A stretch of 64,000 nt of DNA. Origin: Balanoglossus misakiensis (Eukaryota > Animalia > Hemichordata). The stretch covers positions 9,115,764 to 9,179,763 of the forward strand of contig CM082590.2 of the NCBI GenBank assembly GCA_040954595.2, written 5' to 3'. Each line of letters opens with the position of its first letter. Positions within the stretch are counted from its first letter, which is position 1. A program made the position numbers and the translations under genes. The notes under the pieces were generated by a model that made no database searches, had not been told where the DNA came from, and saw only the letters and a list, made by a program, of their open reading frames with translations. This document shows positions 14,018 to 58,600 of this stretch, piece by piece.

Positions 14018-16501
14018 ATGGACTCTACTGAAGATCTAGGGGTGTGTTTCAACAGAAAAATTAGTCTGGTCTTCGCTGAGGACCTGCGCAAGTCTAGATT
14101 TTTGTCCTCAGATCTGACAAGTCAAAATTTGAGCTGTGAAGGTAAGGAAATTCGACATGGGGTGATTTGAGAAAGAAACATGTTTAATGTCATGTCCACA
14201 GAGACCTGGATATTGTTGATTATACGTCATGGGAGCGACTTCGACTAATTTGCATTTTAGCATATTTATACTATTATAATGAGGCGAAAATGGCTTCACG
14301 GACTACATCATTATCTGATGGGGGAAGGCCGATGTTTATGAGAGGGGATTATGATGAAGATGTTGATTTCAGTAGGGAAAGTAACACCCACTTTTAAAAA
14401 AGAAGAAAAACAGACACATTTCATGTCTATTTCTTTCCCTGCAGATCAAATATAACAACCAGACTTTGTTTTTATTTCAGAGTGCCACTACCTTTGGGAA
14501 GAAGCAAAATCCTCGAACAGGATAAACAAACTAAGCAACTCTTTCAGAGAATCTACAAACATTCTCCTGCAAGAATTAGAAAAGGATAATCTCACTGGAA
14601 CAGGTAAATATGGGTTGCTGCAATTAACCCTTTCTTTACCATAGTTTGGTCCAAATCCATTGTTTTTTTTATGAAAAAGCTGGACCTCTACACACAGAAA
14701 TAGGGGTGAAATATATTATATGTACTGCTTGGAGTTTGATGTGCAAAATTTGCAAACAGGTTGTACACATGATTGCCCAAGCTAACCTACTTAAAAACTT
14801 AGATCTGATCTGTACTGTAAACTGGAGTTCATTTCTGTCTTCTCACGGCTAAACTTGAATGTGTTTTTTTTTTCAGACAAGGCAACAATTTTAAACTTCT
14901 TGAACTGGAGTGGCGCAGTGTCTGTCCGAGTGGTTACATCAAAAACCAGAAATGCACAGCAACGACAGTTGGAGAATAGAGAAATCAGGGAACATTATGA
15001 ACAGAGAAATGACAATATGAACTCGCCAGGGATTCCGTATGCAACATTACAATCTTCCACTCCGAAAAGTTCCTCTACTCAAAAACATTACAGGTATCAA
15101 CAAGCACAATTGGGAAGGGAAAGTCCGGGTCAAATTTCATCAATAACTGCTAACGTTCGAGGAGATGATGTCATTAGGGATAGTGGACGTTTCGGACAGT
15201 CTCTGGTTACCAATAGTAACCACCATGATGGCAACCATAGTGGAAATTCTTCCCATAGCAACCACCATGAAGGGAACCATCTTGGAAATTCTGTCCAGAA
15301 CCACCATTGCGACGACAGCCATCTTGTGAATACATCTTGGGGTGTCCATAGCAACAACCATCGTGCAACTTCATCCGTCAAGGACAAAGAGGATATTCCT
15401 GGTTTTGTCGCGGAAGGAAAGCTGCCAAAAGATTCAGTTGAAGACGCCGCAGTTTCAGGAAATACAAGTGAAAGTGATGAATTCTGTGAGGAGGGAAACA
15501 TCAGCTCACCTCTGATTCTGAATCGACAAAATTCATCATCCACAGATGCGACTCGACAGGACTGCGAGAACTCAATAAATCTTTCATCAAGTTTGGGACC
15601 CCATAGATCTGTGGAAAAAATTATTGCTGGGGAGGGGAGTGGGGAAATAAAAATTGAAACAGATAAAAACTTAGGCGACTGCCACTATGCAAGGATTGTG
15701 AAAACAGGCGATATCGGGCCAGAAAATGGAAATGGAAATGCCAAAGAGAGAGGGTGGATTGTAACCGAGAAAGGACCGGGTGTTGAGCAAAATTCCGACA
15801 GCCAGGAATCTTCCGCGTATTTGCAGTGGGGCGACATGCACACAGAACAGTCTCACAGCTCACAGCTAAATCATTCAACTCCGGATTTAGAGAAGTTTTA
15901 CATGCACAGCTCAGGGTCTGTATCCTACAATCCAAATACCGACGCCGATGGAACATTGGGTGGCACTGAAACTGTGGAGAGAATATTCAAAGTGATGCCA
16001 CCGCCGGGAAAACGTAAGCGCGTGGAAATCTCCGACGCTGTCAAACGAAGTCTGTGTGAGTACAAGAGGTCGAACCCTCATGAATCGTACGCCAAAGTCG
16101 TACAATACGCGAAACAAGAACACAACATGGAGATCGGTCGAAGCACGGTCTACGAGATTCTGAAGGAGAAGGACAAATGGCTGAACATGACGAACGCAAG
16201 CCCGACCGTCATGCGTCATAAAGCGCCGAAATTTCCGAAACTGGAAGAAGCGCTCATATTGTGGCTGCGCGACATCGATTACGTGACGTTCCCGATAAGC
16301 GACGAAATGCTGCGAAGGAAAGCGAAGGAGTTTGGTGAACAGCTCGGCATTACAAACTTCGCGTATTCCAATGGTTGGCTAACGAACATGAAAATTCGAT
16401 TTGGATTCCTGCGGAAAAGAAAGCAGACTTCCGGCAGCAGTTTGCCAGCCAGGAAAGAGAATTCCGTGACCAATCAAAGCGAAGGAAGTGAAAACAAGTG
16501 A
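14018..16501 (+). CDS. Gene A: shared novel N-terminal domain + low-complexity linker + CENP-B/pogo-type double HTH (no DDE domain)
   Basis: Exons 14018-14141, 14481-14603 (123 nt) and 14877-16501, all GT-AG and in frame. C-terminal KRKRVEISDAVKRSLC...IGRSTVYEILKEKDKW...FPKLEEALILW...PISDEMLRRKAKEF...FAYSNGWLTNMKIRFG matches the HTH-psq + HTH-CENPB pattern of Tigger/pogo/CENP-B proteins. Confidence 0.85.
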
Positions 16502-24100: not shown

Positions 24101-27100
24101 TCAGGTCACAGCCAGGACTTTCTGGCCACAAGAGGTCACAGTAACTGTGATATGGTCACCTTTCAAACACAAACTATGTTCATCATCTGAGGATGAGCAA
24201 CTATCATCCACAACAAAACCACCTTCCATCAATGCATCTTTCAAGATGTTTACATTCCCTGGTTGCAATGCATCACAGAGTTCAATCTGAAGTTGACTTT
24301 GTCGACATTTATCAGATTCTGGGATGCTGTCAATCAAAGCTTGAGTGCTGCCATTCAAATCACAACCTTTGAACTCTACGTCTTCCAATGACTCTTTGCT
24401 GATCAACTCTTTCCACTGATCTCTGCAAGTGTCATGTGATGGTGTTTTCCCATCAATGATGCTGACTTTGGACAGACATGGCAGAGCTCGAACACATCTA
24501 CACACATTCTCTAGTGAGAAAACTCTTGAATAGGATTGTATTTCAGAGAACAGATAACCAGATAACCTCAGTGAGAAAACTTGTGAAAGGGATAGTGTTT
24601 CAGACAAGAGATAACCAGGGTGTTGAATTGTCAGTGACTTCAGTTCAGATGTGTCTGACAGACCCCTACATACTCGTCTGTGCAATTCAGTCAAACCCTT
24701 GTTGTCTTCTAGTAAGATAGATTCTACCTCAGTGACATCACACTGTTCAATGAACCGGTGCAATTTAGACTCAGTTTTGACTTCGACAAACTTTAAGGTA
24801 GGTTCACTCTGTACACAATTATTATAATTGGCCAAATCTGAATGATATAACAATGCTAACTGAAGTTTGATGATTTTGGATGAGTTGGCATATCTGCCAC
24901 TTGCAAATAAGTGATGACCTACAAATTCCAATTGACGAATAACCATGCCAGCAACCACAAATCTATCAATTATCTCTGATATTCTATGAGCACCATATAA
25001 CCAACCATCTGACAAGACAAATGTTTCAAAATGTTGACATTCTTGAACAATATTGCAAAAGGCCTTTGTAAAGCCATAATCGCCAATGCACCCTGAAACA
25101 TAGGTTAAAGTATGGGCATTCACTGGAGCCAAACTACATAATATTTGTTGACTGCAAGGCCAGTACAATTTCTGCCGATCATCACAAAATCTGACATTGT
25201 TGAACCTAAGTAAATTTGAAAAGGCCAATATGAATTGTGTCACAACACCAAAGTTCCCCCAACAGAATTCGCAGGAACAAAGAGATATCTCTGCATCTAA
25301 AGAAATGCTCTCCTCGTCTGTCGACAGACAATCAGAAAGTACTTGATGAAGACTGACAGGGTCACAACTTGATTTGCAAATATCAATTAAAAATTCATGA
25401 TTTCCAATCTTGGCAATAATCTTGCAGTGTTCACCAAAGCAGAGTTGACAGTCCCCATGGCAACTAGGTAGAAAGCGCACTCGTTTTGGTGTACTGGGTT
25501 GGAATTTGTTTAACGCATCATGTACAGTTTTGATGAAATCTAACTTGACATATCTTACTACCAAACTAACTTCTTTGGCTCTTAATTTCAGAAAGTCTGA
25601 GATTATGCCAGTGATACGACAAAAATGTTCATGAGTGGAAATGCTGTAACCATGAAATGCCAAGGACACCTTATTAGAATTGACTGATACAACATTTTTC
25701 AGCATTGCTTTTACACCAGACTCAAGGTTCTTGTCTCGTAAGTCACATCTGATAGCCATGTCCAGTGAAACTCTGTCACTATCAATGGATGCATTCTGTG
25801 ATAACAACAGAAACTGGTCAAGGAAATTTAAACTCTGTCCATGGATCTTGTAACACCTGCTAGAAAACTTGTCAAGTCGAAACCTTGCAGTGAGATCTAG
25901 TGTACTACAGCCCATACTTCTGCTTTTCTCACCAAATGTCACAGAAAATGAACCAAGTGATTTATTCTCACACAATGCTGCATGCAATGTGTTTAAGAAT
26001 GCTATGTTGCAGTGAGGTGGCAATTTAATGTGAAGTTGTTTGGCAGTAATCTGTGATACACATTGGACCAGACCAGTGTTGTACATCATGTCATCTTTGA
26101 ATCTGTACTGTATGTAACTGACACTAGAGAAGTCCAATGACAACTTACAGAACTTTACCAGGGCCACCCTTCTGTGCAAGGCCTGTATGTCAGAAATGTT
26201 CTTGCAGTCTTCCAAATTACCAGAATACCTGATTCTCATGTCTAGAGTAGCTTCATCATTATTAGTGGATGCATAATCTGAAAGTGTCTGATAAACACTC
26301 ACAAAATCCAAAGTCTTTCCATCTTGAAAGAAATGGATTTTAAACCGTCCTAACTTGGCAGTGACGGGCTTATAAATCTTCACAACTCTTTTCCTCTTGG
26401 TACCATCACAATTGGATTCTACATCAACTGACCTGATCGACCTACTCTCACACAAAACAGCATATGCAGTTTTTATGAATTCTATACTGTCTATAGGTAA
26501 CCTCCCTATGACAAGATTGTTGGCAGTAATCTGTGACAGACATTGGACTATGCCAGCAAGATTAGTGATTAAGTCAGGACTAGCAGAATCGATTGAGTGA
26601 GAACAATCAGAATCAGAATCAGAACAAGAATCAGTGCTATCAGACAATTTCAGTGATAAAATGTTAAAACCAACTGATTTCACGCTTTCAAGCATAGCCT
26701 GGACATCAGCTACATGAGACTTGTCCCTGAAATCACTCTCAATATCCATGTCTAGTTTAAGTCTATCATTATTCACTGATGCATTCTCTGAAATACACTG
26801 ATGTAGACTCACAATATCAAAATTCATGTTACGTGTCACATAACAGAAATTCAAATGTGCAAACTTTTCCTGAATAACCAGTTGACCTGTGTTCGACAAA
26901 TCCACAGCAGGATCATAAAATCCAACATCAACTGATCCAAGAGACTTATTCTTATATAACTGTGTATGTACACATTTTATGAATTCCATGTCACACCCAG
27001 GGAGCCATTTAATCACAAGCTCGTTGGCTGTAATCTTTGACAGATATTGGATGGCATCTGTTGTGGCAACAAGAAAATCAGTTTCTACAGCTCTTGAAAT

Positions 27101-30100
27101 ATTGAATGTCAACGACAGTTTTTCAAAATTAACAGAAGTCACTTCTGACAGCAAAGAGTGTATATCAGCCTTTATGTTCTTATTATCAGAATCACAACTG
27201 ATTTTAATTTCCCGTCTAATTCTGTTTCTGTTAATCTTACCATAGTGTGAAAGCAACTGGCACAAATCTGAAAAATCAAAATCCCTGGTATTCACAGTGT
27301 ATTTGCCATTAAAGCAACTGTGCCTCCCCTCAACATCAAATGTACTTCTGTCAAAGGATCTGAAACTAGTTTGTCTTGACTGCTGGAAAGATTCAACTTT
27401 AATGGCAACTGATCCAAGAGACTGATTTCTACATAATGATTCATGTACAGCTTTTATGAATTCCATATCTCCAAAAGGTAATCCTTTAATGTCAAGCTTA
27501 TTGGCAGTAATCTGTGAGAGATAATGGATTATACCAGTAGTGGACTCTTTATCACTGAAGGGCTTGTTGGCAGTAAACTCTGACAGATATTGGACAACAC
27601 CAATAAGACCAACACAACTGAACTCTTGATCATAATTCATGAATATCAATGTTAAGACATTAAAATCAACTGATGTCGCGCCTCTCAACAAAGTCTCCAG
27701 GTCAGAATCACTGTTCTCATCTTTAAAATCACACACGATATCCACGTCTAGTATAAGTTTCTCATTACGAACAGATGCATACTGTGAAAACATCTTACAT
27801 AAACTTGATAAATCAAAATTTATGGTATCTATCCTGTAAAAGCTTTGAAATTGTCCAAACCTAGCTCTGATGTTTAGTTTATAATGTGATTCCCATGGTT
27901 TCAAACCTGTATTCACATCAACTGACCCAAGAGACTTATTCCCACATAATGATGCATGTACAGTTTTTATGAATTCCATATCACCTACAGGTAACCCTTC
28001 AATGACAAGCTTGTTGGCAGTAATCTGTGATAGACATTGCACTACACTAGTCAGAGAGTTTGTGTCTATATCAGTGCTTTTAGAATCAGAATAGTTCAAG
28101 AATAGCTTATAATGATTACAATCAGCCTTGATACGAAGTAATGTTTGTTGGTATTGTTCACATTCAGCAAAATTGACTGACACACTTGTTATTAGGTTAC
28201 TAGCTTTGTCAATGTGTATATGTTTTATAACCTCGTAATACTCAACAGGCAAGCTCTCGATGATAAATTCTTCAGTGATCTTTGATAAATCTTGCATTAT
28301 AGACCCAATTTGATGCAGATGGATGCTTTTCATGTTTGAATTACCATAATTCAAAACCTCCACTTTGATCTCCACATCTCCTCGATATTTCAACCCTTCA
28401 TCTTCGACAGCAGTGACATTTTTTTCTCTCAATTTGTCAGAACCTATTTCATTTATAAAATCAAAATTGCAAACATCATTTGTGACATCACATTGTTCTA
28501 TATCATATTTTATATTCATTTCCATGAGCACATGTTTATCCTTATGTTTAATTTTGAATGAGTCAAAAAACTTTCTAAATATATCCGGTGTCCTGGGATT
28601 TGATGCAGACATCTCCAATGTGATCATTTCAGAAAAAATATTTGGGCATTTCAAAAGCTCCGTGTTTATATGTAGCATTTTTGGGTCAGAATAGTTATCT
28701 AGGTCAAGGTCTATTGTCAGAAATTCAGGTAAAAACTCAGCACAAAGAAGAAGTGTTTCCTCAGATTCACAACCACTTTCATACAACATTGGCCTTGCAT
28801 CAAAGTCTGCATCTATAATAGAAAACCTACTCTCCCAAACCTTGAATACTTCACCAACATTGTCTTGCAAGTGACCACCAAGAAACTTCATCATTGCATC
28901 ATTCCAAGACAAAAAACCCTGTTTAATGAAAAATGCAACAGCATCTACAAATTGTTCATGGTTACTAGAGCATAGATTGGAAATGTGCAATGAAGCAAAA
29001 TATTCCTGAAATGTTAAATGATAAAAGTTATAGCTTGGAGGTCGAGAGGTTTTTGTCAGAAGTCCCAATTTCTGTAAGTGTTGACGACCTGAAATTTCTT
29101 TCTCACTGAAAGAATGTTTACCTGACTTCCAAGCAGTATATGAGAGTTTACTTAAGTAGAGAATTTCATCCCTGATTTCATCACTATTTGGATCAATAAT
29201 GTTATCTTGTTTTTCACAGTATCGTTTTACAACATAATCAATTAACTCTTCATAAAGTCCTGTGATTGTGTGTGGTAGTTTCTTTGGTTCCATCCAAATA
29301 TCACACAACATCAAAGTATTCAAAGGACTCTGCAAAAATCCAGACAAAATGCTGTCGTGGGTGGATGTCTTCAATTCATTGATAAAACTCTCGACTGTTT
29401 CTGGTGTTACAGTTTCATCCATTGAAGACATTGCATTTATATGCTTTTTAATAAAAGCTTCTGCATTCTTTCTGTCAAAACCCTTAATCAATAATTGACT
29501 CTCATACATCTGTTTGGAGTTCTTATCCCTGATTTTCCGAGACGTTACAATTACTGGGCAGTCAGGCAGCAGTCGTCGTTTTTCTCGGATCATTTGCTTA
29601 AAGTACACTGGGAGATCATCAGTACTGACTTCATCAAGTCCATCAAAGACAAAACACACTTGTGATTGATTGCTTTCAACAAAACTCCATATCTCATCTG
29701 CTCCTTCAACATTTTGTAACAAGCAATCAAAAACTGCGTCTTTAAGACTATGTTTCTGATTATTTTCTGAATGGTATTCATGTAGATCTTTCAATTCAAA
29801 ATGAAAAAGAAGTTTGAAACAATTGAGAAAGTTTACATTGCCTTTTGCCCAATCATATGCCAACTTTTTACAAAGAGTTGACTTACCATACCCTGGATCA
29901 CCTTCTATTAAAATTCGTCTTGGATTTTTACAATCCTTAGTTTCTGTGAATAAATCTTGTATTGCAAAATCTCTCAAATGTCCATCTTTGGTTTGTAATT
30001 CTAACTGTACGTAGATATCTTCGAGTTTCAGTCTGTCTGTTCCATCCCACCATGGTAAGGGGACAATGTTGGTATATTGTCTCTTGTAGTCTTCTTGCAA

Positions 30101-32772
30101 CTTTTGTTGGTACTTGATGACAACATCTGAAATTATTATCATTGAATATTTCTGTATTACTGATCACAAGAACCAAAGTATCATGGTGCACCAGCTAGCA
30201 TTTCATCAATCGTGATTTTTGAGCGTTTTATTTGGATGAAATGGCCCCTCAACATCTTTGAACATCATTGAAGTGATTTCTGATTAAAAATTTTCAAGCA
30301 CTGATAACAAAATGATGGTTTGGTTCAGATGTCTTTTTTGTGATTGAGACCAGAAAATCTAATTTTCTCACCCACTTCATTTTATGAAGGACCAATTTCA
30401 CCATGGAAAACAATAGTTTTGGACCAAACCATTGGGGTGAAAGGGCTCAACCAATTCATGGTGAGAAACTTACTTGGTGTAGTTTTCATGGTTGGCATAT
30501 CCATGGTTGGCATATTCATGGTTGGTGTATAATCCGAAGTGCTTGGTTGGTCATCCTGTTCAGAATCTATTAACATTAAACAAATTCAGCTGTGATCAAA
30601 CAATTGAAAAACTGGAAAACTAGTATAAACAAGTTTATACTTTTAAAACATGAGAGTAAATGTTGCAGTACATCTTATTTTTTATAGACTAATAAATGAT
30701 TATTGTCCAACAAGTAGTGACAAGAATATACTTACTATCAGGAATGTTCACATTTTTTCTCTTGGGTGGACTTGAATAATTTTCGTCAGTTTCAGCAGAT
30801 CTTTTACCACGACTACCGGTACATACTAGAATGAATGATAGACAAGTCATGAAACATGTTTGACTGAAATTGGTCTGCTCTGAATTTCCTGCCTACGGTA
30901 ATCTTAATCTTTTATCATATATGAATAAAGGCTCAATCCATATCAGATTACTTGTCCATAGAGATGTATACACACATTAGATAATCCTATTCTAGTCATT
31001 ATTTGTAACCATCCACATAATAAATCATTCCAACATTTAAAACTTAATTTAAACTAATTTTAATGAGCTGTAGGATGGAAAATATTACTGGTGGAAAAAT
31101 TTGAATAAATGATGATTTTAAAAACAAGCTTACCTGCGGTTGTAGTGTCCTCAACAGCTGCATCAGTTTGTTGCCTAGGTGATAGTGACTGCAGTCTTGT
31201 CACCAAGGGATACAGTGCACGCCGTAAATCATGTCTGTCTATGTGGTGTTGTACACTTGTGGTTTCACCTTCTGGATCTTTCATCATTGTCGTCATCTCT
31301 GCCTGTGTTGCAGCTGAACTAACTGCACTGCTAGCAGCAACATCACCAACATCTGAAAAACCTGATGTACAGAATGGGAAAGGTAAACACTGCTGAATTC
31401 ATTCATGTGTGTAGAATTGCTATTAAAATATATTTCAATTTATACCACAAGTACTCTAACTTGTTCAACTGCTCAAAATGCTTAACCACCATTTCTTTTC
31501 AAAATTAAATGTTCATTTTACTGCCATACATTTGGCTCATTAGTTCACAAATGCGAGCATTCAAACCATTATGTAGGATGGTCTGTGGTTAGTGACGACA
31601 GCATTAAACCATGACCATTTGAACTGCACAGATGATGACTTCAAAATGCCATTTGTTTCAATCAGTTTGACCAGCTGAAGAGAGACTATTTTTTTCATCA
31701 TTTCATCTCTTTCAAAATCATAATTTTGGGTGAACATGGTATTTGCATAATACAAATGCATACTTGTATTGTAAAATTCTGCAAGTCCTTACCATAAGAT
31801 TCCGTGGTGGATACTGGAATCTTGGATTCTGCTTCTGTTGTCACTTCATCATATGGATAGTCTTCATCAAATCCTTTCTCATATCGAACTTCTACATGCT
31901 TCGCTAACATGTAAAGTTTGGCAATTTCCAACAGTTGAATAAGAGTTTCAGGTTTGTCTCTTGATAGATGTCCAATGTCACACAATTCTTCGAATAAACT
32001 GTGTGGATTTTTGCTTTTCTCAATTTCTTCCCTTCTTCTTTTACGTATTGGAGGATTCCTTAAAATCGTCAGTGCATTCAACAATCTTTTTAGGTCATCT
32101 ATAGTGCAAAAAAGAAAAGAAATTATACTAGAATTTTTCTGGAAAAGAATCTCTTGAGAAAAATGTTAAAAGTACAGTAGATCACTGTCTTAAATTTCAA
32201 ATTGAAAATGGGATGATCATGTATTGTCTTTGTGACAAGTTTGAATAAAATCAGCTCTGTTGTATAGTGTTTCATTGGGTGCTCCAACAGAAGATTGCTA
32301 CAAGAATACAGGGGAAAATGTTAGTTTTATTACTGATACTAGTTCAGTGTTTCATCCAAGATGGCTTCAAGTTCAACAGGGGGGATATGTCCCCCTTTGC
32401 CAGAATATTTGAGGGGGATTCCACTCTAGCAAGGGGGGACTGTAATAATCTCCAACATGTGAATGGCATCATTTTAAGGGGCACTGGTCCCCCTTGATAA
32501 ATCACTAGAGGGTGCCAACATGTCAATCCCCCATCCCCCCATCTAGATGAAACACTGGTTGTATGTGAGATGACTGAAGATGCAACTACTGCATAATTAT
32601 AGACATTCCCTGAACAACCAGGACATGCACACTGATGGGTAGAGACATCCATTCATGAGTGTCCTAGAGCATCACTCTCTCAGGGATAAAAACATTCAAA
32701 TGTACACTCACCATTTCCAATGTCATCTGCCAGCTCAAAAAGATACTTCCTAAATGGATCAATATCAGACAT
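24101..32772 (-). CDS. NLR-type protein: death effector domain (DED) + NACHT NTPase + long degenerate repeat region
   Basis: Exons 32772-32712, 32098-31793, 31352-31134, 30825-30736, 30566-30474 and 30126-24101, all GT-AG with phase-1 junctions. N-terminus MSDIDPFRKYLFELADDIGNDDLKRLL...RKRRREEI...SLFEELCDIGHLSRDKPETLIQLLEIAKLYMLAKHV is DED-like. NACHT motifs: ILIEGDPGYGKST (Walker A), FVFDGLDE (Walker B), VIVTSR, SPL, FYHLTFQEYFAS. Confidence 0.88.
32345..32557. mobile_element. Short TIR element (CAGTGTTTCATC...GATGAAACACTG)
   Basis: 12-bp inverted termini; an internally deleted related copy lies at ~61798-61881. No clear TSD. Confidence 0.55.
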
Positions 32773-37200: not shown

Positions 37201-38988
37201 GCATTACCCACAATGCCATGTTCTGTTTCAGGGCATCCTGGATGGGTTCTATGCTCACCATCGTCACTATTTCCACATTGGTGGCGCCAAACAGTTTCTG
37301 GTGTTCCTCCAGAGCTTCTCGCGTATTCCTCGGCACCGTTGCCATGACTGCCGCCATCATAAACAACCTGGTAGGTTTTACACGGATCAGCGACACTTTT
37401 CCGGCTGCCCCCATTCCTGGATTGTGATTCAGACAGGGCATGGGAATTCTCGGAATATTTGACATCAGAGTCGGTGCTCCCCGTAGCAATTCTCACCGAA
37501 TCCTCTTCCGATTGTTCACTTTCCCAACTCTGCCCGCCACGGATACAGGAATTCCGAGTACATTCCATAGTATCCTCACTTTGCTGCTTTGCCAGATTTC
37601 TAGGAATGTCAGGATATTCCGGTACATGTACATCTTTTCCTTTCCGCCGCCTCACTCCAGGACTCTCAGTCCCCTCATCTTCCGAGATCACGGTCTTCTG
37701 TCTCCATGACGACTCAATTGTCATTTTCAATATTCCATACTGACACAAAAAATTCAACATGGCCGTTTTATCTGTGAATGGTAAAGCACCATGCTTAAAA
37801 ATATGCAAAAAGTGATGACTATTGGAGCTTTAGCCTTTTCACCACCATGGTTTGGTCCAACTCCATTGTTTTCTACAGTAAAACTGGACCTCTATAAACG
37901 GAAATGGGGGTGGCTGGGGTTAATATAAACATTACTAAGAGAAACAACGCTGTCTTCAGGTCAATTGATAAAAGTCATTAAAGTATAATTGCCAACAAGG
38001 AATTGTACATCATTGGATTATTAAAATAAATTATTTACAAAAACTCTTCTTTCTTGGCCTTACCTCTGTCAATAAGAGTATCACTTTGTATCTGGTATAT
38101 CAATTCCTGGCTACATTTTTCAAAACAATGTCCAAGTTTGTCAGCTACATCTGTCTGTTTAGCTTCTTCCCAAAGACAATGACAATCTGTAATGACAAGG
38201 CAATTTCATATGATTACAGTGCAATACTAATGGCTCGATCTCTCATTGTCACTGTTTAGACCCCGGTTATTCTGATTGGTCAGTTACATAATCACATTCC
38301 CATACTTGAACCAGGTCGACCACAGCACTTGTGATTGGTCAATTAAATTATTACAATGCAATACTAATGGGTCGCTCTCTCATTGTCACTGTTTGGCTAA
38401 TTAATAATTAATTCAGAACCCGGTTATTCTGATTGGTCAGTTACATTCCCACACCTGAAGCAAGTCGACCACAGTGCTTGTGATGGGTCACTACCCTGGC
38501 CACTGTTTGGCTAATTAATTTAGACGCCGGCCATTCTCATTGGTCAGTTAGTGAAACAGGTCGACCACAGCACTTGCGATTGGTCAATTACGCACTGCAC
38601 TGCACTCTTTGAACACGTGTGGAAAGACTTAGACAATTTACGGTGACCGGGAGATGACCTCATAAGGACAGTCCGCATGGTGTCTCGAAACGAAAATAGC
38701 CCCAGTGAGTGAAGTATAGGAGGCTGAGCTCTCAAAATCACATTCAAAATAAAACTGCGGTGTGATTCAAAACAGATATGATTTAGTTTTGGTTGACCTT
38801 ATGTGACCTCCGACCCCACAGTCTGATATTATTTATATTGATATCTTACCTTGTGAACTCAGCGAAGGACATTCTACGGCTGGCGAGTCGCATTGGCGAT
38901 TTTCAGACTGTGAGTCCCCGACGTTTTGCGGGATAATCAACCGGATATTACGCAGCAGATTGAGTGAAACGCCATCTGTGGTATCCAT
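34300..38988 (-). CDS. Gene C: shared novel N-terminal domain + acidic linker + two bZIP-basic-region-like helices
   Basis: Exons 38988-38850, 38186-38064 (123 nt), 37771-36588, 36249-(35650 or 35575; donor uncertain) and 35238-34300; the frames join. The last two exons each carry L(T/S)ETQ(R/K)Q(H/R)KRE(R/C)DRIRQRRHREK(V/L)RRMK. Confidence 0.75.
35451..35535. mobile_element. ~85-bp piggyBac-like MITE (TTAA-CCCTTTCACC...GGTGAAAGGG)
   Basis: TIR CCCTTTCACC with TTAA-like flanks. Family copies at ~23056-23141, 30400-30450, 37830-37922, 42445-42538, 56841-56925 and 60405-60428. Confidence 0.65.
36367..36550. mobile_element. Degenerate Tc1/pogo-type MITE in an intron of gene C
   Basis: Internal repeats GTGGCCAC / GGTCACCTCT(A/C)TATA with an inverted terminal copy, TA-flanked. 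Confidence 0.45.
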
Positions 38989-48176: not shown

Positions 48177-48485
48177 GTTAGTGCAAAACTACGTTTACCT
48201 CAGTATCGTTATTTTGCGGGTCTGCGGGTCAAGGTGCGGGTCAAAGTGCGGGCCAATTTGCGGGTCGCCCCAAAAACGAATGAGACTTCTGTGCAATTGT
48301 TTCTTGGAATAAAATGAACCCAAAATATAATCCCAGTTCCTCTTATACCATAATAACTTTCGTGAATACCTCGAAAACTACAACATCTTTCAATATTACA
48401 ATGGAATCGACCAAGGATGCTGGCTGCAGTGCGGGTCGTGTATTGCGCAATCAGTGACGTCATGCTTTCCCGCCATCCGGTCAAG

Positions 48486-51400
48486 ATGTCCGCCGACATG
48501 AGGTACGTACCGAGCGATCTTATTCTTTAGAATCGTTATTCATATGCAAAGTATAATGATTTGTATTGTAAAAGATCGTCGTGATTGTATCTATGACTCG
48601 AGCTGCGTGTCACGCACTCAACCTAACCCCATGTAATATGTTTTACGCTAGACTTGCTCAAGTCTATGGGCTTCGTATGCATTATGTGTAGGGAACGCTA
48701 CCCGAAACCACAAGCTCAGTTCCAAATTCGAAACTCACCTCATTACCAAAAACACGCTCAATGTCAAGGCAAGCATGCGCGCAAAAAGTATTGCAATTAT
48801 TTATTAAGACAAAAAAACACCGAAAACACAAAAAGTATTGAGATTTAAAAATCACCAAGCGACTAGTGGGCTAGTCTAGTTTTACGCGTACAAAGTCTAG
48901 TTGATTTTTTCACATTTTGATGACATATGAAGAGGATTTGATCTTCATAATGTGTTATCCTTCGAGCACAGGGGACTCTCCCTCCGCGATTTTGTTTGTT
49001 TGTTTGTTTGTTTGTTGTTGTTGTTGTTGTTGTTGTTGATTTTTGGCATAATAAACAAATACATATTTCTTTATTAATAAATATGGTTTGTTGACATGTG
49101 GCTTAGTGATATGTCCGGGGCCGTGGACCGAAAAAAATGCCAACACTGACCCTAACCGTTGATAATACCCTAACACTTACATGTCAACAAACCATATTTA
49201 TTAATAAAGAAATATGTATTTGTTTATTATGCCAAAAATCAACAACAACAACAACAACAACAAAATCGCGGAGGGAGAGTCCCCTGTGCTTCGAGGTCTT
49301 AAAAGCAGTCTGATATTATTTGTGGGACCATAGTGGAAATAAGTTCTTAACCTTTCTGTGTTATCCCTGCACTTTGGACATTTTTGTTTTTGTTTTTGTT
49401 TGTTGTAGTGTACATTTTAAAGTGAAAAAATACATAAAATCAAATTAACTTGTCAAGCAAGTACTTGCAAAACTTGAATTGAACAATCAGCAGATTGTGA
49501 AAATTGACAATCTTTGCTTGTTTAGAAAATTTTTGTACTAATAGTGATGTTCTTACCACTTTATTTCAGTGATGTCATTCTGATAGGATTTATGAGACAC
49601 CGCAAACCATGGAAGACGTCGTATTTTCAACGAAGATCTCAAGTGAAGTCACTATTTGACTTCCTGGATCTAGATTGTTTCTTAGAAACAAAAACTTTAT
49701 CGCTTGCGAGTGGACAAGCAGAAAAATCATTAGAGGAAGTTTTTGGATCAGTGGAGTATGTTAATCTACAAGTTGTCACAGAAACAGACTGTACCATGGT
49801 TACAGGTATTGGATGACATTTTTGTCCTTATAATTATATACACATGTACTAGTATATCACATCCAATTATGTTTGTACAACACCTCTGTGTTCCTGAAAT
49901 ATGAATGTAAGGAGTCTATCAGATCTGCATGGTAATAGTTAGCATGTAAAATGGAAATATAAGACACAATTTGTGTTGGTTTAGTTGATAGGCATGCCTA
50001 TTTTCTCAAAACATTCATTGATTGCATTATTTGTTTATGTTTCTTTGTCTTAATTTGGAAAATGAGCAAAAGTGATTATAAGGTTTAACCATAGACTCTA
50101 TAGTGTCTTCACTATAGAGTAATGGTTTAACAGTTACTTTTGATGTTATGATGATAATGCATGTTGTTCTCATTTTTCTTCTGATGTTTTTCATAGCTTG
50201 TGCATTTCATTTAACATGTTTGTTTGTTATATGATTGCCAGATGGTGAAAATTGCAATGCCAGTTCAAGAAGTGATGGTGCTCATGCTGCTGTCAATACT
50301 ACTTCTAGTACTACTGCTAGAACTGATGTGGAGATGGAAACTGGAGATACTGCAAGCATTGTCAGTTGCAAGAGGAAAATCAGTTTTATTGAACAAGCAG
50401 AGGCAAAGCAAAAGAAGCCAAGTAAGTAGGGGTTTATCATTACACTTGCATTTCTATTTTTCATGCTACTTATTTATTTTTTTCTGGGTGTTTTCACAGT
50501 TTGTGCATTTCGTTTAACACATTTGTTTGTTATATGATTGCCAGATGGTGAAAATTGCAATGCCAGTTCAAGAAGTGATGGTGCTCATGCTGCTGTCAAT
50601 ACTACTTCTAGTACTACTGCTAGAACTGATGTGGAGATGGAAACTGGAGATACTGCAAGCATTGTCAGTTGCAAGAGGAAAAAAAGTTTTATTGAACAAG
50701 CAGAGGCAAAGCAAAAGAAGCCAAGTTAGTAGAAATTATTATTGGACTTGCAGTAATACAGTTCAGTAACGCTAAATTAGACATTTCTAGTGCCCCTAGT
50801 CTTTCGCGTGGGACATTTTCGTAAATGTTGATGATTTTCTTGAGTTCGTTGGGACGCCTCACCCGTGAATTTTTGGCGTTCCCCTCGCCCTCGCTCATAA
50901 ACAAACGTTAATGGTCAGGGCATTGTCCATTATTTCTATGGTAAATATAAACACAGGAATAACCGCCAATCTACACATGGGATTTAATAAGATTGCATGC
51001 AATGTAAATGTCACTATTTATATAGAGTGGTCATAATGTCTGTTTCTGTTAACACTAGCTGTTCTTCTTTTCCCACATGTACAGACTCAAAGAGAAGATG
51101 GTCCAGACGCCCTCGAGTGATTTACTCAGATTCTGATGATGAGACAACCCATGCATCAGTCATGTCAGGAGACATAATTGATCTTACTGATTCCCCTGTA
51201 AAGAAAGGTGGTGTGATTGATTTAACTTCTTCACCTGAAACAAGAGACAAACAAACTGTGAACAAAGACCATATCTTGGATGAGATGTATGCCCCTTTAC
51301 CTGAAAGTTCTGATAGTTCTTCTGAGCATAGTGGAATTGAAAATACTCCTATAAGAGGTAGAAATATTCCAACAAGTAAGTTTTCAGGTTTAACCCAGAA

Positions 51401-53957
51401 AGATGTCAACCAGCTGCCATATGATATTGATGGAGATTGTGCTTTTTGTTTGAAGTATGACAAAACTCCAGGCAATAGAATGAAGAGTACTGTGGATGGA
51501 AGAAATTGGACACGTTACAACAAATCTTTCACAAAAGAGTTCAGTAAAAATGATGGATTACGGCTACGTGCTAATTGCAAGGGCACATACAAATGTGTCA
51601 ATAATGAATGCCCATTCCAGAAATACTACAACTGTCAAAATTCTCGTCATTGTTTAAAACAGGGAGAAAACGTGGTTTGTGAAGAGTGTGAACAAAAAAT
51701 GAATTTCTTCATCTGTAATGCTGTGAAAATATGGGAGTTTCCAAAGAACAGTGACATGGTAAAAGTTTTCCATTATGGTAGGCACACATGTAATCCTGTA
51801 AAGAGACCCAAATTTCCTACATTACTGCAAGATGCTGTGAAGCTAAATCCCAGCAAAAAGACTTGTGAACTTTCATCTAATATTCTGATGGACGCAGTCA
51901 GAAATGGTGAGTCGCGTGAGAGTGTTGAAGAGATGGCATATAGTTTATCTGATGGGATGAAAGCCAGAAATTTAAAATACAAAACACTAGGAACGCAAGT
52001 ATCATCAAAAAAGTTAGCAGAACTACAACACAAATGTGTGAATACATACAAAGATGAGTTCCTCCTGTATGAATATCAAATAAAAGAACAAAGAAATGGT
52101 TTTTGGTTCATAGTTAAGGGTTCAATCAAAGATGGTAATGTTTGCCTTGAAGAATTCCAAACAGATTGTCCTGAACAATATAAAACTTACATTATAAAAT
52201 CATCAAAGGAAAGAATACAAACAGCAATGCATTTAATGAATAAGGACCACTTTATGAGTGACGAGTGGTCTTTTATGGACTTCAAAGTAAATAGAGTAAA
52301 ATTGAAGGCACAAAAACTAAAGTCTCTTAGTATAAGTACATACCATACCTTACTAAAGAGAGTAGTGTGGCTAGCCCGTATGGATTGTGAGCACGAGGAC
52401 ACAGAAACAGTAGAACTGTTTTTGAATAAAGTTGACGAGATGGTTAGTAAATATACATCAGGTGCAAATACACATTTCAGACCTACTGCTGGTTGGATGT
52501 TGGATGAAGGTGGTGGGCTCCACTGTGGCCTTGAAAAGAAATTTGGAAAGGCATATTGTGATGAGAATGTTGTTACCTGCCGTCTCCATTTAATGCAATG
52601 TGCACTTAGACATGCAAATAGTGCTAATGTTGGTCTGCCAAAGAAAAGTGAAACTGTTACCAAATTTAGATCCCTCGTGAATGAATTAGTGTATTCTGTT
52701 ACTGTAAATGAATACAAGGTATGTTACAGAGAATTGGAAAGTTTCATACAAGAGATTGGAAATAGTGGACTTCTCCGATGGCTGTACTGGTGGGATAAAA
52801 GACGTACTCATGTCATGGAGGCATACAGACCTAAACGTTTATCATGTCCAAATACTAATTTGGCAGAGGTCAGTCATGCGTCAATGACACATTGTGGTGG
52901 ATCTGATCTTACAATAGCAGAGGCAGCAGTGTATGACATAGCAGATTCATTCAAATATGGACAGTTGATAAAGAGTTACAGTGAGGGAACAGCTAAAAGT
53001 GGTGCAGGTCCATCTTATGCTATGAAACTGAAAGCCAAAGATAAGAAAGAGGAAAAAACTGTTGATACACTGATGACAGAGTTACATGAACAATTCATTG
53101 GGGGGAATGGTCCAGTGATGGCTTCAGGCTCTTCATTTACTGCAGATCCCAAAGCATCACACAGAGCAGATAGAGGAAGAGACAATGATGTTAGACCAAA
53201 AGGGAGGTCAAGAACAAATTCCAGTAAGGCATTAACCATGTCTATACAGAAGGCAAAAGAAATGATTAACTACAAAATTACTGAGATAGAAGTAGCCTCC
53301 CCAACTCAGGCAACCTTGTGCATTTCAAACCCACAAAACACCATGTACTTTGTAAACTTTGCAGAAATGCCAACATGTACATGCCCTTTCTCAGAAAATC
53401 AGAATTCAGTTAGGCAAGGTTGTGTCGCCTGTAAACACCGTCTCTATATTCTACTGCAGCTAGGGTACAAGGAAAATGACAAAATTATGTTACAATTTAG
53501 CTACAATCAGAGGGAAATTAGAGATATAATAGCTAAAATTGAACATTTCAAGACTAAATCAAACCCATCTCCTAATGTTAAGTCATTGAAATTACAAACA
53601 GCCTCTGTAACTGACAATGAAATGTATGAAATTGTCTTTCTGCATGGCATAATTAAAAAGTGTTATGGCTGTAATAAACAGTTCACTGATGAAGAAAAAA
53701 GAGAACCCTACAATCTTATAATAAAACACCTTGAAGTAAGACCTATTTACTGCCAAACTAAAAAACAATGGTATATCTCTGGTGCAAAAACAAAACAAAA
53801 TGCATATTATCATCTGAATGTAGGATGTGTACGATTAATCCACCCATGTTTTAACCCCCGCCTTATAATTATACCAGTTAATGTACAGGCGGTTATCACA
53901 GTTGAACAAAGGAGAGTGTTAGAAAATGCTGGGTTTGGACATGTAAGTCTGGGATGA
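48486..53957 (+). CDS. MULE transposase: GCM-like Zn DNA-binding domain + DDE core + SWIM finger + C-terminal PARP-type-like Zn finger
   Basis: Main ORF 50997-53957 is uninterrupted. Motifs: FMDFK (D), WMLDEGG (D), CRLH (CxxH), TNLAEVSH (E), CTCP-x-CKH (SWIM), CYGC...YYHLNVGC. Plausible spliced model: 48486-48502, 49570-49805, 50242-50421, 50545-50724, 51085-53957. The upstream exons are less certain than the main ORF. Confidence 0.82.
48967..49288. mobile_element. Foldback MITE nested in the MULE (CACAGGGG...CCCCTGTG, 7-bp TSD CTTCGAG)
   Basis: Arms ~48967-49099 and ~49179-49288 are reverse complements apart from microsatellite length. CTTCGAG at 48960-48966 and 49289-49295. Confidence 0.85.
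50200..50728 (+). repeat. 303-bp-period tandem duplication containing a 180-nt exon-like segment
   Basis: ORF-track translations at 50235/50538 and 50224/50527 are nearly identical. Confidence 0.92.
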
Positions 53958-55632
53958 TAAGTAAGTGAGAAGTCATCAGTTGTATTTTGGTGTCACTATG
54001 CTCTGTTGGCAGTTACAGTTGTTTTCTAGTGCACAAACCAGTGTTTTTATTTACATAGTTTTAGATGCTTTTGAAAACTTGGAGTTATTTATTGTTTATC
54101 AGAGAAAAGGTCACCAGGTGTATTCCATGACTTGATTGACACTGATTTAAATGGTGCTATTCTGTGTTCAGTACTTTCATGTTAAAGGTAGTTATTTATC
54201 ATATTGTGTTACTGATTTATTATATACTATAGTTATATTGTGTTACTGATATATTGTTATATTTTGTTACAGTACTAATATATATTGTTACAGTACTGTC
54301 ATAATATATTGAGATATTTTGTTCCTGATATATATTGTTATTGCTTGTTATGATAAGGAGTTATTGAATAAACATTTACATACATATTTAAAAAAAAAAC
54401 TTGTGTTTATTTGTGTATGGTATTGTGTATGCTGGTTACATGATATATTTTTCAACAATCTAAGGACATGATTGTCATATTGAAAGTGGTGACCCGCACT
54501 GGCCCGCAACCCGCACCGGCCCGCAACCCGCAACCCGCACTGACCCGCAGCCCGCATGACCCGCACAATAGTTACACTCCGTTTACCTTACGTAAAGCAC
54601 ACTATCATGTCAGCGTCATCAATGATATTTTGCAGCGGCTGCATTTTCATGATGTAGTATTCTTTCGTCTGATATCGAAATTGTGTGGAGATATATCGAC
54701 TTATTTTTCTGATATGTTTGTTTCCTTCTAAATATCCGATATTTTATGGGAACATTTCGAATCAGGTAGGTTGTCATGGTATCCGCGCGTCTGTAAATTT
54801 ATTCACTTGACGCACGCCATCTTAAAAAACTGGAGAATTACTGAAAATTTGCACACAGATCATGTAGATATTTATCCTTTTTTTTTATGCTAGCTGATAT
54901 CTGGAGTTCCCCCCTTTTTTAGCAATAACTAATAATGTTTTATATTTGGTAAAACATCTCCGAAACCACGACCGTGTACAAAAAATGGCAAGAGATATTG
55001 ACCACGTGTCATATAACGTACGTGATCTACAGATTTAAAACCATTGCAGCTATTCCTTTTAGATATTCAGGCATATGCAAATCAAAGGGAAAAATAGTAC
55101 TATTGGATCTTTGCACAATTTGTGGTCAAAACTATTTTTCTCATCACATATCGCATGTCGATTGCTGTGAAATTTCGCTTCGCATACAATAATTCAGCAT
55201 TTCACCATCCCCAGACCAGATTATAGTTTTAATATACCTGAGAATTTACACTTTTTCTTTCTGAACGAAAATCTGTTACCAACCCAATCTCTCTCTAATG
55301 TAGATGTCTTTATGTGTCAGATTCAAGAACAGTACAACTCAATCTCTTTCTGCATGATTATTAACATGTTTTAATACTTTCGACTTATTCTAACAAATGA
55401 AAAGTGAATAATATATAATTGTAAAACTCTAAATACATGAAAAAAATTGACTGTGCATTTACTTTACTTCCGGATTCCTAAGTAAAAATAAAAGAAATCA
55501 TTTTGGGTAGATATTTAACTTTGGGGGCGCTGTGATTAGGTGTTGTCAGCACAGGACAACAGAGAGACTGCCTTTCATGTCTGTCCGGAAAAACACGACA
55601 ATTCTTCAACAAAAATAGATTTTTCCATCATC

Positions 55633-58600
55633 ATGGACGAAAGTGACCGTTTCACATTGAAACTCGGACCGAAATGTAACCTGATCGTGTCCGCAAACGC
55701 GATCAAGAACGGTTTGGATCAGGACATACAGTCGATGTCCGAAGACTGTGAGATGGAGAGTGGAATCACACCATCGGATATCAACAGTGAAATTAGACTC
55801 AGCGTACAAGGTAACATATTATATTCCTATACATTTTCTCATTATTCTCGCGAATAGCCATACTTTTTTACTTTATAAATATATATGTTGATCGCCTGTG
55901 TGTTGTCATGTTTTGACTTGTCCTGCAACTTGCTAGCTGATGTCAAAGGTTAAAGCATGAACCTAGTCATTCACCCATTACATATCATGTATTTTCAGAA
56001 GTTTTCAGGCAAAATGTTCTCAGATCTCCCCTTTCCTGAGCATTCGTGTTTTGCAATCAAAAAGCCAGAGTTAATTTTATGCGTTATATAAAGCCTGTAT
56101 GCGTTGATCAACCATGATGCATATAGTTTGTTATTGTTTGGATATCCAACTCCAGTTAGTTAGTCATTAGCTCCCTGACATCCAGCTAACTGGTGTCAAT
56201 GATGTCCATTGGAAATTTCCTTCCTGACCAGTTTCAAATGCTTATGTGGCATTTTCACATGAAAGGCGCTTCATATATATTCATTGAACATTTTTATTGT
56301 TGACGAAAGGATACAAGTCAGGACATGACATCAGTTTCAACAATAACAATGCTTATTGTACTGCATAATAGGTTATGTTGATGAGATTAGTACCAGGCAT
56401 TTCAGCATGTTATGGGGATTTGAAAAAATGTTTAGTTAATCCACAGAACAAAGATACTGAAGAAATAGCCAAACGCTACTTGAAGTACTGACTTTATCAT
56501 CTAAGATAAAAGTCTCAAAACTTTTCTCCTGCTTTGCTCAAGGGACAACTTTAGATTATTCTCTCTTTAAGAAAAACAAATTAGGGGCCACCTTGCAAAG
56601 TTTTGAATGATGGAGATCTTTCATTGGCTGGATCTCCACTTTCCATGGCAACCGTGGTTTAATGGACCTATCATTATTTGTGTTACAGACTGCTATGTGG
56701 CTTGGGAGGAAGCAAAGAGGAACCAGAGAGAAGAGAAACTCCGTGAATTTTTTGTAATGTGTACTCAGCGATTGCTGAATCACTTTGATGAAAAGACTCT
56801 AACCAGTAAAGGTGAGTATTTCGGGTCCAAATATTTTTAACCCTTTCACCACCATGGTTCAGTCCAAACCCATTGTTTTCTAGGGTACGGTTAGACCTCT
56901 AAAGAGAAAAATGGGGGTGAAAGGGTTAAGAGAATCAAAATCAAACTTTTTTGTACTTATCTGAGAAGTTCTTTGGGTTGGCCCAAAGCTTGTTGGGCTT
57001 GTTGTCATTGAATGCATACTTTGTTTTCTACTGAAACAGTTATCAAATTAAGGTAATCAATTTGTTTGACGTTTTTATCATTTTAATATTTCAGATAAGA
57101 TGATCATCTTGAATTTCCTCTGCTTGTGTGGAATTTTCAAGGTCAAAGGTAATAAGGATGTGGAGCCAGTGTCTTCCGTCAGTACAGATGACAAATCACT
57201 TCAGAATAAGGATGGACGTCTAAGTTCGTACGACTCAGAGACATTGACCAATGAGAGTTCTGGAGATTTCTCAGACGATGAAACCGAGGAGACACGCGGA
57301 AGGGATACGAAAATGCCAAGACGCACCACTGAGGGCGCTAAAAGGTGTGACACTGTCCAATCTATAGATGGAGAGTTGACGTCACCTCGGATAAAAACCG
57401 AGCCATTATCCCCAGGTCAGTGTGCTGGGAAAACTGATCAAGCAGAAATGCAAGGACACCAGGGTACCATAGAGGGCGCGGTTTCAAACGACAGTCTACC
57501 CCAGATGATGTCATTGCAGCCTTTGAAAGATTACCCTTTGACCTCTCCAGGAGTTGCTGTTGCTGGATTTTTACCATATGCCGGATGGCTGCAAGGGAAA
57601 GACAGCTTAGGGAATTATGGAGCTGGACGAGTAGACATGTTGTATCCGTTAAACAAGGTGGCAATGGTTGGTGCAAGTTTTAACCCCTACCAACAGAACT
57701 TGAACAGTATTGGGATTTTCAAGGAAACTGGTGTGAACGAACAAAGACCAGAGAATAATTCAAGTGATGGAAATGCCATGGAGGAAATGGTTAGGGCTGA
57801 ATGTGGAACAGCGAAAAATGTTCTCGGCAGTGTGGGTTATTTCAATGCAGGATTACTGAACAACCAGGATGATGTTGGAAATATGCAGGGAGAGAAAGTT
57901 CGACCGAAGAGAAAGCAGACAGTTCCGAGACGGAGCGTGCAGAATCCTGAAGGAGATGAGCCATTTCAGTGCGTGCAGTGTGACATGACTTTCAAACTGA
58001 AAGCTGAGCTGAAGGTTCACACGATGCAACATGACGGGGTGAAACTGTTTGAATGTGAGTTTTGCGACCGGACTTTCTTCAGTAACAAACAGTTGGTGTA
58101 TCACGTCCGTGTGCACTCTGGTGAGATGGCGTTCACGTGTGTAGAGTGTGGGAAGGCGTACCGCGATCGCAGTAATCTTCAGAAACATATGAAGACACAC
58201 TTGGGTGAGGGATTGTATACTTGCGAGGTCTGTGGCAAGGTTTCCATCCAGAAAAGTGATCACGCGAAACACATGCGACAGCATACTGGAGAGACACCAT
58301 TTAAATGCGATGAGTGTGGAAAATGTTTTAACGAAGTCAGTCAACTTTACCATCACGCGAAAGTCCATCAAGCCAAGAGTATTTTGTGTGAGTATTGCGG
58401 GCAGAGTTTCAGGATGAAATCTGCGTTGGAGGTGCACTTAAAGACGCACACTGAAGCATCTTATCCGTCGGGGAAGCCGCTGAAAGACGCTGAGAAAAAG
58501 CTTCATACATGCAAAATATGCGGCGAAGTTTGTCGGTCTCGAACGCAGTTGAAAACGCACAGACGAACGAAACACCGGAAGCCGCAATTCCCGTGCCATT

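Follow-up and report, generated by a model that had tools for sequence, protein, structure and literature searches.

Structure of the element and its insertion site

Positions 48201-54579 of the window (the whole 64-kb stretch of DNA that was analysed) probably hold an intact, recently inserted DNA transposon of the Mutator superfamily. The predicted fold of a two-zinc domain in its transposase is WRKY in its GCM version, and that domain is likely to bind the TGCGGG(T/C) arrays that face inward from each end of the element. These three statements are made jointly and with good confidence (Table 1). On its + strand the window has exactly two copies of the target-site duplication CGTTTACCT, one on each flank of the element. 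An empty site with a single CGTTTACCT is present in two public sequencing runs of the species, X1 and X2, which derive from one sample of one study and from whose contigs the copies were assessed. Other flanks begin at 54579 in four contigs of X1 and one of X2, representing other insertions, read depth across the element end drops from about 300-700 to about 50, and deletion derivatives that retain the ends were seen as the joints 49727->54358 and 48967->54530. The earlier note on this DNA had described a recently inserted Mutator-like element with a perfect 9-bp duplication at this place, and had proposed a search for an empty site and for further copies. The element is borne out by the duplication, the empty site, the end arrays and the DDE core; the duplication is indeed perfect, the empty site in both runs supports a recent insertion that is also polymorphic, and the flanks at 54579 supply the further copies.

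Table 1 Features of the element and its surroundings, by position in the window
Feature	Position	Strand	Basis or remark
Left 9-bp target-site duplication, CGTTTACCT	48192..48200	+	Single copy at the empty site
Mutator-like element, whole	48201..54579	+	6,379 bp; joint 48191->54580 sharing 9 letters in run X2
Left end: short imperfect terminal repeat and five TGCGGGY	48201..48266	+	16/22 nt match the right end
Sixth TGCGGGT word	48430..48436	+	Upstream of the modelled start codon
Modelled exon 1 (ATG)	48486..48502	+	Inferred from frame and splice signal only
High-copy MITE-like repeat, 230 bp, intron 1	48649..48878		Short inverted ends, GTTTTACGC on both flanks
Palindromic MITE, 322 bp, intron 1	48967..49288		CA...TG ends, 7-bp duplication CTTCGAG
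Modelled exon 2, small N-terminal domain common to close relatives	49570..49805	+	35% identity over 69 aa to relative P0003, E 9e-11
Modelled exon 3, low-complexity	50242..50421	+	Gene model
Modelled exon 4, tandem duplicate of exon 3	50545..50724	+	178/180 nt identical
Third high-copy repeat, intron 4	50808..50946		Depth and loose ends; no clear duplication or inverted repeat
Exon 5, main transposase exon, stop TGA	51085..53957	+	Open frame and gene model
GCM-like WRKY-fold domain with inserted zinc ribbon	51381..51821	+	Predicted fold, conserved ligands
Catalytic core: D 52278, D 52503, CxxH 52578-52589, WW 52788-52793, E (NLAE) 52866	52278..52868	+	Conservation
SWIM-type finger CxC...CxH	53376..53438	+	Four relatives above the Pfam SWIM cut-off
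Putative C-terminal zinc domain CxxC...HxxxxC	53661..53828	+	Pattern in sequence
Right end: nine inward TGCGGGY and terminal repeat	54492..54579	-	Motif and duplication positions; outside flanks
Right 9-bp target-site duplication, CGTTTACCT	54580..54588	+	Perfect match to the left copy

Gene model and modules of the transposase

The gene model, which is based on splice signals and homology, comprises five GT-AG exons and is open for 1,161 amino acids, including the DDE, CxxH and SWIM modules. An open frame of 988 codons (50991-53957) contains the peptide quoted in the earlier note. Across 73 rows, both core aspartates and the CxxH are conserved in 100%, the glutamate in 99% and the tryptophans in 92-97%, and the cysteines of the C-terminal CxxC...HxxxxC are kept in about 80-86%. 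The exon-2 domain looked ubiquitin- or UBX-like by eye; this candidate was rejected, there being no PDB match and no such Pfam match in relatives that carry the domain.

Fold and family of the GCM-like domain

The ligands of the domain are ordered C-x5-C-x4-C-x22-C-x2-C-x8-C-x22-H-x-C (codons at 51576, 51594, 51609, 51678, 51687, 51714, 51783 and 51789). All eight, the four ribbon cysteines among them, are present in 116 of 120 family rows, and the spacings x5, x2 and x8 are nearly invariant across these rows and presumably equal to those of GCM1. The fold model of the N-terminal domain (pLDDT 96.1; 35.5 for a single-sequence prediction) has the WRKY-GCM1 sheet, in which a zinc ribbon is inserted between the two core cysteines. 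Foldseek ranked the GCM crystal structure 1odh first (E 5.7e-3, above 0.001; TM 0.54; 140 columns), as did a VIA-wide comparison against 48,161 chains (Z 8.2 over 120 residues, model residues 2-146), and of the close structural matches only GCM extended over the entire domain together with its zinc-ribbon insert. A second VIA comparison gave Z scores of 8.4 and 8.3 for WRKY1 and WRKY18 against 8.2 for GCM, with lower rmsd over 75-77 residues. No FLYWCH or BED entries were among the matches listed in the fold search, which was not counted against either.

Identity to GCM is 11-13%. The HxH zinc ligands of GCM were found in none of the 120 rows, which have HxC instead, and the GCM loop after the second core cysteine is absent from the model, where a strand starts three residues past C112; GCM shares the two histidines of WRKY, and a loop at this place is GCM-specific (PMC1702500, available part). 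Of 168 relatives retrieved, 127 were scanned, and none of these, nor either of two window pieces, matched the Pfam GCM family PF03615; two of the proteins were judged on their best five families. PDB sequence searches did not reach GCM, one of them returning OTU domains only. The earlier proposal of a GCM-like DNA-binding domain thus stands as to the ribbon architecture and the first rank of GCM in both searches, and falls short as to HxC, the missing loop and Pfam; on closeness to GCM rather than to WRKY the results are divided, GCM having that rank and 120 residues covered, and WRKY tying on Z over its shorter stretch. As modelled, the domain is GCM-like, distantly related to both GCM and the fungal MuDRF domain, and not a member of the GCM family. 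The family tree is of family members only.

Residues that would contact DNA were mapped using the first zinc cysteine of GCM1, which we take to be number 76, as the anchor. With this anchor, the GCM1 DNA contacts Arg62, Ser69, Lys73 and Lys74 (PMC8859918) correspond to Tyr, Gly, Arg and Ala, and the Lys74 position across the 120 rows is occupied by Gly in 51, Ala in 45 and Lys in 6; by alignment, the contact residues of GCM look replaced. The recognition hairpin is highly variable in the family, and the clade of this element has a version of its own, RYNK, with three residues inserted.

TGCGGG arrays at the element ends

All 15 TGCGGG(T/C) words of the element lie at its ends and face inward, starting on the + strand at 48215, 48223, 48235, 48247, 48259 and 48430 at the left end and numbering nine on the - strand, between 54492 and 54565, at the right end. 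TGCGGG is absent from either strand of the 6,029-nt interior. The window as a whole holds 23 TGCGGGY words (4.8 +/- 2.2 expected), a number reached in 0 of 100 shuffles. The positions given earlier for the five left-end words were exact, the sixth had been put at about 48431 (here 48430) and the nine right-end words at 54491-54565 (here 54492 to 54565), and the inward orientation was correct. The single perfect site claimed as GCCCGCAT is present as ATGCGGGC.

The repeat core TGCGGG(T/C) equals seven of the eight bases of the GCM site ATGCGGGT. RTGCGGGY fits 8 of the 15 sites, the full GCM consensus is found at one, the leading A of the octamer is missing in 14, and the exact octamer ATGCGGGT occurs at none of the 15. 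In simulations, a random 9-12-nt unit contained TGCGGG in 0.08-1.1% of trials and matched at least seven of the eight bases of ATGCGGGT in 0.1-0.6%, giving a per-element chance of about 0.1-1% that the ends match the GCM site.

By analogy with Muta1, the GCM-like domain is likely to bind these arrays. Several copies of the transposase would load on them and pair both ends; the DDE core would then make its cuts, at 48201 and 54579, and insertion with a 9-nt stagger would produce the 9-bp duplication; we infer these cutting steps from the same analogy.

The window has eight TGCGGGY words beyond the element, where the expectation over all of the window is about 4.8. Several of the eight sit within zinc-finger coding frames.

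Superfamily assignment and the source of the TGCGGG likeness

The family is large (2,400 clusters), with named members in mussels, a gorgonian and a crinoid. An OTU match was found in 16 of 127 relatives; the element itself has no OTU. A metagenome scan gave four loci of relatives, none with recognisable ends. No relative turned up in three viral scans or in a scan of prokaryote genomes, and of the 121 loci that a motif scan recovered from viral contigs none codes for one. The 9-bp duplication falls in the 8-11-bp range of MULE/Mutator elements, the terminal inverted repeats are short and imperfect (16/22 nt) with inverted word arrays, and the inverted repeats of known MULE groups are long, short or absent. 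It is very improbable that the element belongs to another (C/D)xxH superfamily (P, hAT, Kolobok) or to an unnamed one. Such a placement would suit the short, imperfect ends and the lack of any match above a Pfam transposase cut-off in the element, whose own frame has no Pfam match, or in the 127 relatives, of which 22 match Pfam MULE PF10551 weakly (best E 2.8e-4; 21.7 bits vs a cut-off of 27.6). Against it stand the duplication, the layout hhD...hhxD...CxxH...W...NxAE, which resembles the MULE DDE set in the available part of the PMC13359780 supplement, and the recurrence of the weak MULE matches across the full 99-position profile, with SWIM after the core.

WRKY-GCM folds may often favour G/C-rich words, as in Aft and FAR1 proteins. 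That the domain binds the arrays and its lineage drifted to TGCGGG independently, transposase and ends co-evolving quickly, has a little under an even chance of being right. It is favoured by the apparently replaced contact positions, by the clade-specific hairpin, by the poor conservation of DNA-contact residues across the superfamily (Babu et al., PMC1702500, available part), and by four relatives of about 30% identity (L001-L004), whose loci show no recognisable ends, being without TGCGGG; it has to accommodate a chance match of only about 0.1-1% per element to the site of the very factor that is the top structural neighbour. That rarity, the whole-domain match to GCM and the near-invariant spacings point instead to inheritance, in which the domain would read TGCGGG as GCM does because a transposase ancestral to both GCM factors and this transposase lineage had passed its specificity on to them. 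As leads only, a Mucoromycota cluster with 12% PF03615 is among the atlas neighbours (scores 0.87-0.88). Inheritance is possible though doubtful, since under the assumed anchor the contact positions differ and the Lys74 position is mostly Gly or Ala, the recognition hairpin varies widely, and a single match among 2,400 clusters may be a chance pick. It is distinctly unlikely that the arrays are bound by the C-terminal CxxC...HxxxxC domain or SWIM, or by a factor of the host (its GCM, for instance), with the GCM-like domain binding the terminal tip or another sequence. The conserved C-terminal cysteines would fit, as would the one site with the full GCM consensus, the word just upstream of the modelled start, and the finding that binding by Muta1 depends on its terminal motif, a lone subterminal repeat being left unbound (PMC5499845, available part); but no module other than the GCM-like domain has a known DNA-binding fold, the ligands of this domain are the most conserved, and the leading A of the GCM octamer is absent from 14 of 15 sites.

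Comparison with known systems

The DNA-binding domain of Muta1 is of the FLYWCH type. As far as the available part of its description goes, Muta1 of Aedes aegypti shares with the element its MULE nature, an 8-9-bp duplication, a short terminal motif with subterminal tandem repeats, a DDE core and a conserved W, and its binding, cleavage and excision rise with subterminal repeat number; it differs in having 145-bp near-perfect terminal inverted repeats and 12-bp units in place of short imperfect ends and an irregularly spaced 7-9-nt word (PMC5499845). MuDRF elements, GCM-plus-DDE Mutators published in 2011 from Basidiomycota and Naegleria (Cantu et al., PMC3164196), likewise combine a GCM-type domain (here at the level of fold, not Pfam GCM) and a DDE transposase in one protein and have a 9-bp duplication. 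Unlike the present animal element, they come with no terminal motif in the available part of their description, and none of the 127 scanned relatives matches Pfam GCM, MuDRF itself being compared by description. The domain of GCM factors (1odh, PF03615; site ATGCGGGT, PMC2172107, available part) agrees with that of the element in the whole-domain match, the ribbon and the two-zinc order, and differs in sequence (11-13% identity), in HxH for HxC, in the loop missing here, in the apparently replaced contacts and in the transposase fusion found here. Among the WRKY-GCM1 domains of MULEs (Babu et al. 2006, PMC1702500, available part), which also place a WRKY-type sheet before the MULE core, the HxC family has the HxC ending of the element with a short spacer, whereas the insert family has a long insert between the cysteines that is not a zinc ribbon, the ribbon being treated there as a mark of GCM. 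The MuDR-6_HM group of Hydra (Dupeyron et al. 2019, PMC6446971), compared by the available part of its description, resembles the family as an animal MULE with an OTU domain and no terminal inverted repeats, and differs from the element in the presence of OTU and in having no zinc finger type listed.

That GCM arose from a transposon was suggested in 2006 on the basis of its fold (PMC1702500) and in 2011 on that of the fungal MuDRF domains (PMC3164196), so that the GCM-transposase link drawn in the earlier note was already in print. In the literature searched, no paper linking the end sequence of a mobile element to the GCM site was found, nor any report of this large family and its GCM-site-like ends. 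The wider proposition, that a large animal Mutator lineage missed by Pfam GCM keeps the GCM two-zinc architecture together with the ancestral GCM DNA word, is advanced tentatively, as somewhat unlikely. If true, the element would serve as a present-day model for the ancestral transposase whose domestication gave rise to the glial-cells-missing factors, and with its multi-copy ends GCM-type sites would be carried in clusters into promoter-like DNA. Because the ends of an intact, polymorphic animal element carry the GCM core, the choice between inheritance and convergence is directly testable. Even with a convergent motif, the locus would add the DNA-binding domain (GCM ribbon with HxC) of a large family undetected by Pfam GCM, along with a candidate autonomous element whose ends are simple.

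Nested repeats in the introns

At the 230-bp repeat of intron 1 read depth is very high, and loose ends are numerous at 48878-48879. The 322-bp MITE is missing from other copies of the element, as indicated by the joint 48961->49291 in both X1 and X2.

Element boundaries, mobility and insertion site

The Mutator-like transposon at 48201-54579 is real, intact and polymorphic. As the earlier note had claimed, it is bounded by a 9-bp target-site duplication, CGTTTACCT occurring exactly twice on the + strand of the 64-kb window, once at each border, and 16 of the 22 outermost nucleotides agree between its two ends. Contigs were compared from two (X1 and X2) of three sequencing runs of one sample, the two that contained the stretch, with substitution differences from the window; both belong to a single study and were counted as one line of evidence. 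An empty site exists, because right-flank contigs of X1 and X2 run on into the left flank, an X2 contig joining 48191 to 54580 with nine letters common to both sides. In five contigs (four in X1, one in X2) the element stops precisely at 54579 and other DNA follows; depth there falls from several hundred to approximately 50, contig depth being no copy number. Both the empty site and the other copies that the earlier note had proposed to look for were thus found; the family is multi-copy, and the run contigs include deletion derivatives retaining both ends. Loose ends at 54515-54530 in X1 and X2 point to sister subfamilies whose right ends differ; CCCGCA words persist in one of them. The insertion site is located in CpG-rich DNA between divergent zinc-finger genes; with the element removed, the CpG observed/expected ratio is 1.0-1.4 adjoining the site and 0.2-0.3 at two kb downstream, and the DNA at the site may be promoter-like.

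The inward-facing arrays described previously were recovered: the left end has six TGCGGG(T/C) (TGCGGGY) words, all on the + strand, and the right end has nine, all on the - strand. The window holds 23 such words against 4.8 expected, a total reached in 0 of 100 shuffles, and TGCGGG is absent from the 6,029 nt of element interior searched. The array words share the context (G/T)TGCGGG(T/C)(C/T)(A/G); eight of the 15 fit RTGCGGGY, one is ATGCGGGC and none is an exact ATGCGGGT.

Gene model and transposase family

Five modelled GT-AG exons join into an open frame of 1,161 aa, in agreement with the intact ORF claimed earlier. The transposase core (D, D, CxxH, WW, NLAE) is 92-100% conserved across 73 rows (the query and 72 rows of A5, the alignment of transposase relatives, over 600 aa), and is followed by a SWIM finger and then, at the C terminus, by a CxxC...HxxxxC module. 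Intron 1 carries two nested MITE-like repeats, each with its own duplication: a palindromic MITE, which is probably P-element-like and which the other copies of the transposon in the run contigs lack, and a 230-bp repeat that may be a MITE belonging to a different Mutator-like family.

Features of the element and of the surrounding window
Feature	Position	Location or strand	Details
Modelled exon 1	48486-48502	GT-AG model	guess from frame
Modelled exon 2	49570-49805	GT-AG model	homology to relative P0003, E 9e-11
Modelled exon 3	50242-50421	GT-AG model	tandem duplicate of exon 4, 178/180 nt identical
Modelled exon 4	50545-50724	GT-AG model	tandem duplicate of exon 3
Modelled exon 5	51085-53957	GT-AG model	
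Palindromic MITE, 322 bp	48967-49288	intron 1	CA...TG ends, 7-bp duplication
Very high-copy repeat, 230 bp	48649-48878	intron 1	short inverted ends (TAGACT), 9-bp duplication
Third high-copy repeat	50808-50946	intron 4	approximate borders
Shared N-terminal module, one exon	14459-14611, 18271-18405, 38059-38199, 56667-56819		
Shared N-terminal module, other exon	starts near 14880, 20495, 37790, 57100		
NACHT-type NTPase, long repeat region	24101-30163	-	single open frame, 2,020 codons
Dispersed repeat, ~100 bp	56830-56935; copies near 23050, 30400, 35480, 37870, 42480		at least 6 in window
Tandem array, 88-bp unit	6581-8821		25 copies
Tandem array, 80-bp unit	11983-12503		6.5 copies

The nearest relatives of the transposase are 46-51% identical. 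With a threshold of E <= 0.001 a profile search returned 2,400 clusters, a number that fell to 963 at 1e-10 and to 256 at 1e-30; 150 were listed. Named members among the matches listed belong to Mytilus galloprovincialis, M. coruscus, Paramuricea clavata and Anneissia japonica; a further one, assigned to a bacterial MAG, is probably host contamination. Gene content and the named relatives indicate an animal host. In a Pfam scan of 127 of the 168 relatives retrieved, 22 matched MULE, none of them reaching the cut-off (best E 2.8e-4); four passed the cut-off for SWIM, 16 matched OTU and three gave weak WRKY hits. N-terminal cargo varies among relatives and includes protein kinase domains (P0032, P0036), OTU proteases (P0007, P0033, P0051 and others) and duplicated GCM-like domains (two copies each in P0007, P0038 and P0141).

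The domain is GCM-like, not GCM

Of 130 relatives covering the domain, 11 were removed (>1,330 aa or two copies), leaving 120 rows with the query, of which 116 carry all eight zinc ligands (C-x5-C-x4-C-x(mostly 19-24)-C-x2-C-x8-C-x(mostly 20-23)-H-x-C). For the predicted model (pLDDT 96.1), the top Foldseek match was 1odh, the GCM structure (E 5.7e-3, TM 0.54, identity 11%), followed by WRKY1 (E 0.11). A wide VIA structure search of 48,161 chains likewise placed 1odh first (Z 8.2, rmsd 3.6, 120 aligned, model 2-146 onto chain 15-168), with WRKY33 next at 6.5, whereas a second VIA look scored WRKY1 (Z 8.4, 75 aligned) and WRKY18 (8.3, 77 aligned) level with 1odh. On score GCM has no margin over WRKY, and a Z near 8 is moderate; in the predicted fold GCM is the only close match spanning both the ribbon and the N-terminal part. 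The published account of GCM's marks, in the part available (PMC1702500), gives two, a ribbon placed between the cysteines and, following the second cysteine, a loop; the model has the ribbon and lacks the loop. An HxH ending occurs in 0 of the 120 rows, and Pfam GCM in 0 of the 127 relatives scanned. The GCM likeness proposed in the earlier note stands for the ribbon and for the rank in Foldseek and the wide VIA search, and does not extend to the loop, the HxH ending or Pfam GCM. In the Atlas protein-cluster map the nearest neighbours are Mucoromycota clusters (0.87-0.92, one with 12% Pfam GCM), leads only.

Do the ends and the domain share GCM specificity?

The agreement of the ends with the GCM site, given as ATGCGGGT in the accessible text of PMC2172107, is the one surprising point of the element. 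The six-base core arises in 0.08-1.1% of random 9-12-nt units, which makes the match improbable for a single element; it was chosen for study, however, on account of its likeness, out of a family of thousands. DNA contacts listed for GCM1 in the available part of PMC8859918 are Arg62, Ser69, Lys73 and Lys74. The recognition hairpin of the domain is variable across the family. Anchored on the first cysteine, with the GCM1 number assumed, the four contacts presumably correspond to Tyr, Gly, Arg and Ala. TGCGGG occurs in none of four metagenome loci of about 30% identical relatives, loci without delimited element ends. The domain quite probably binds the arrays; that it inherited GCM specificity appears unlikely.

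The element works like a MuDRF element and may belong to that branch: the sections available of Cantu et al. 2011 (PMC3164196) report a GCM domain, DDE and 9-bp TSD in Basidiomycota and Naegleria, whereas the present domain is GCM-like rather than GCM. An origin of GCM from a transposon-derived domain was proposed earlier by Babu et al. (PMC1702500, in part). Term searches of the text and supplements, as available, of two MULE surveys (PMC6446971, PMC13359780) returned no mention of GCM; the OTU-bearing MuDR-6_HM group may be the same family as the element's relatives. Literature searches, whose scope excluded Repbase and most subscription journals, returned no publication that connects the ends of a transposable element with the GCM site.

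In Muta1, more numerous subterminal repeats give higher binding, cleavage and excision (PMC5499845, available portion). By analogy, transposase molecules would be expected to load onto the arrays via the GCM-like domain and bring both ends together as a pair, with cutting possibly proceeding through flank hairpins and insertion with a 9-nt stagger.

Neighbouring genes

From its P-loop motif, the gene at 24101-30163 is a putative NLR-like immune gene. A conserved N-terminal module, split between two exons (...DCxYxWEEAK..., followed by DKxxhLNFL...), recurs in nearby C2H2 zinc-finger and HTH genes; no name was found for it, and it is possibly a lineage-specific effector domain of a zinc-finger gene cluster.
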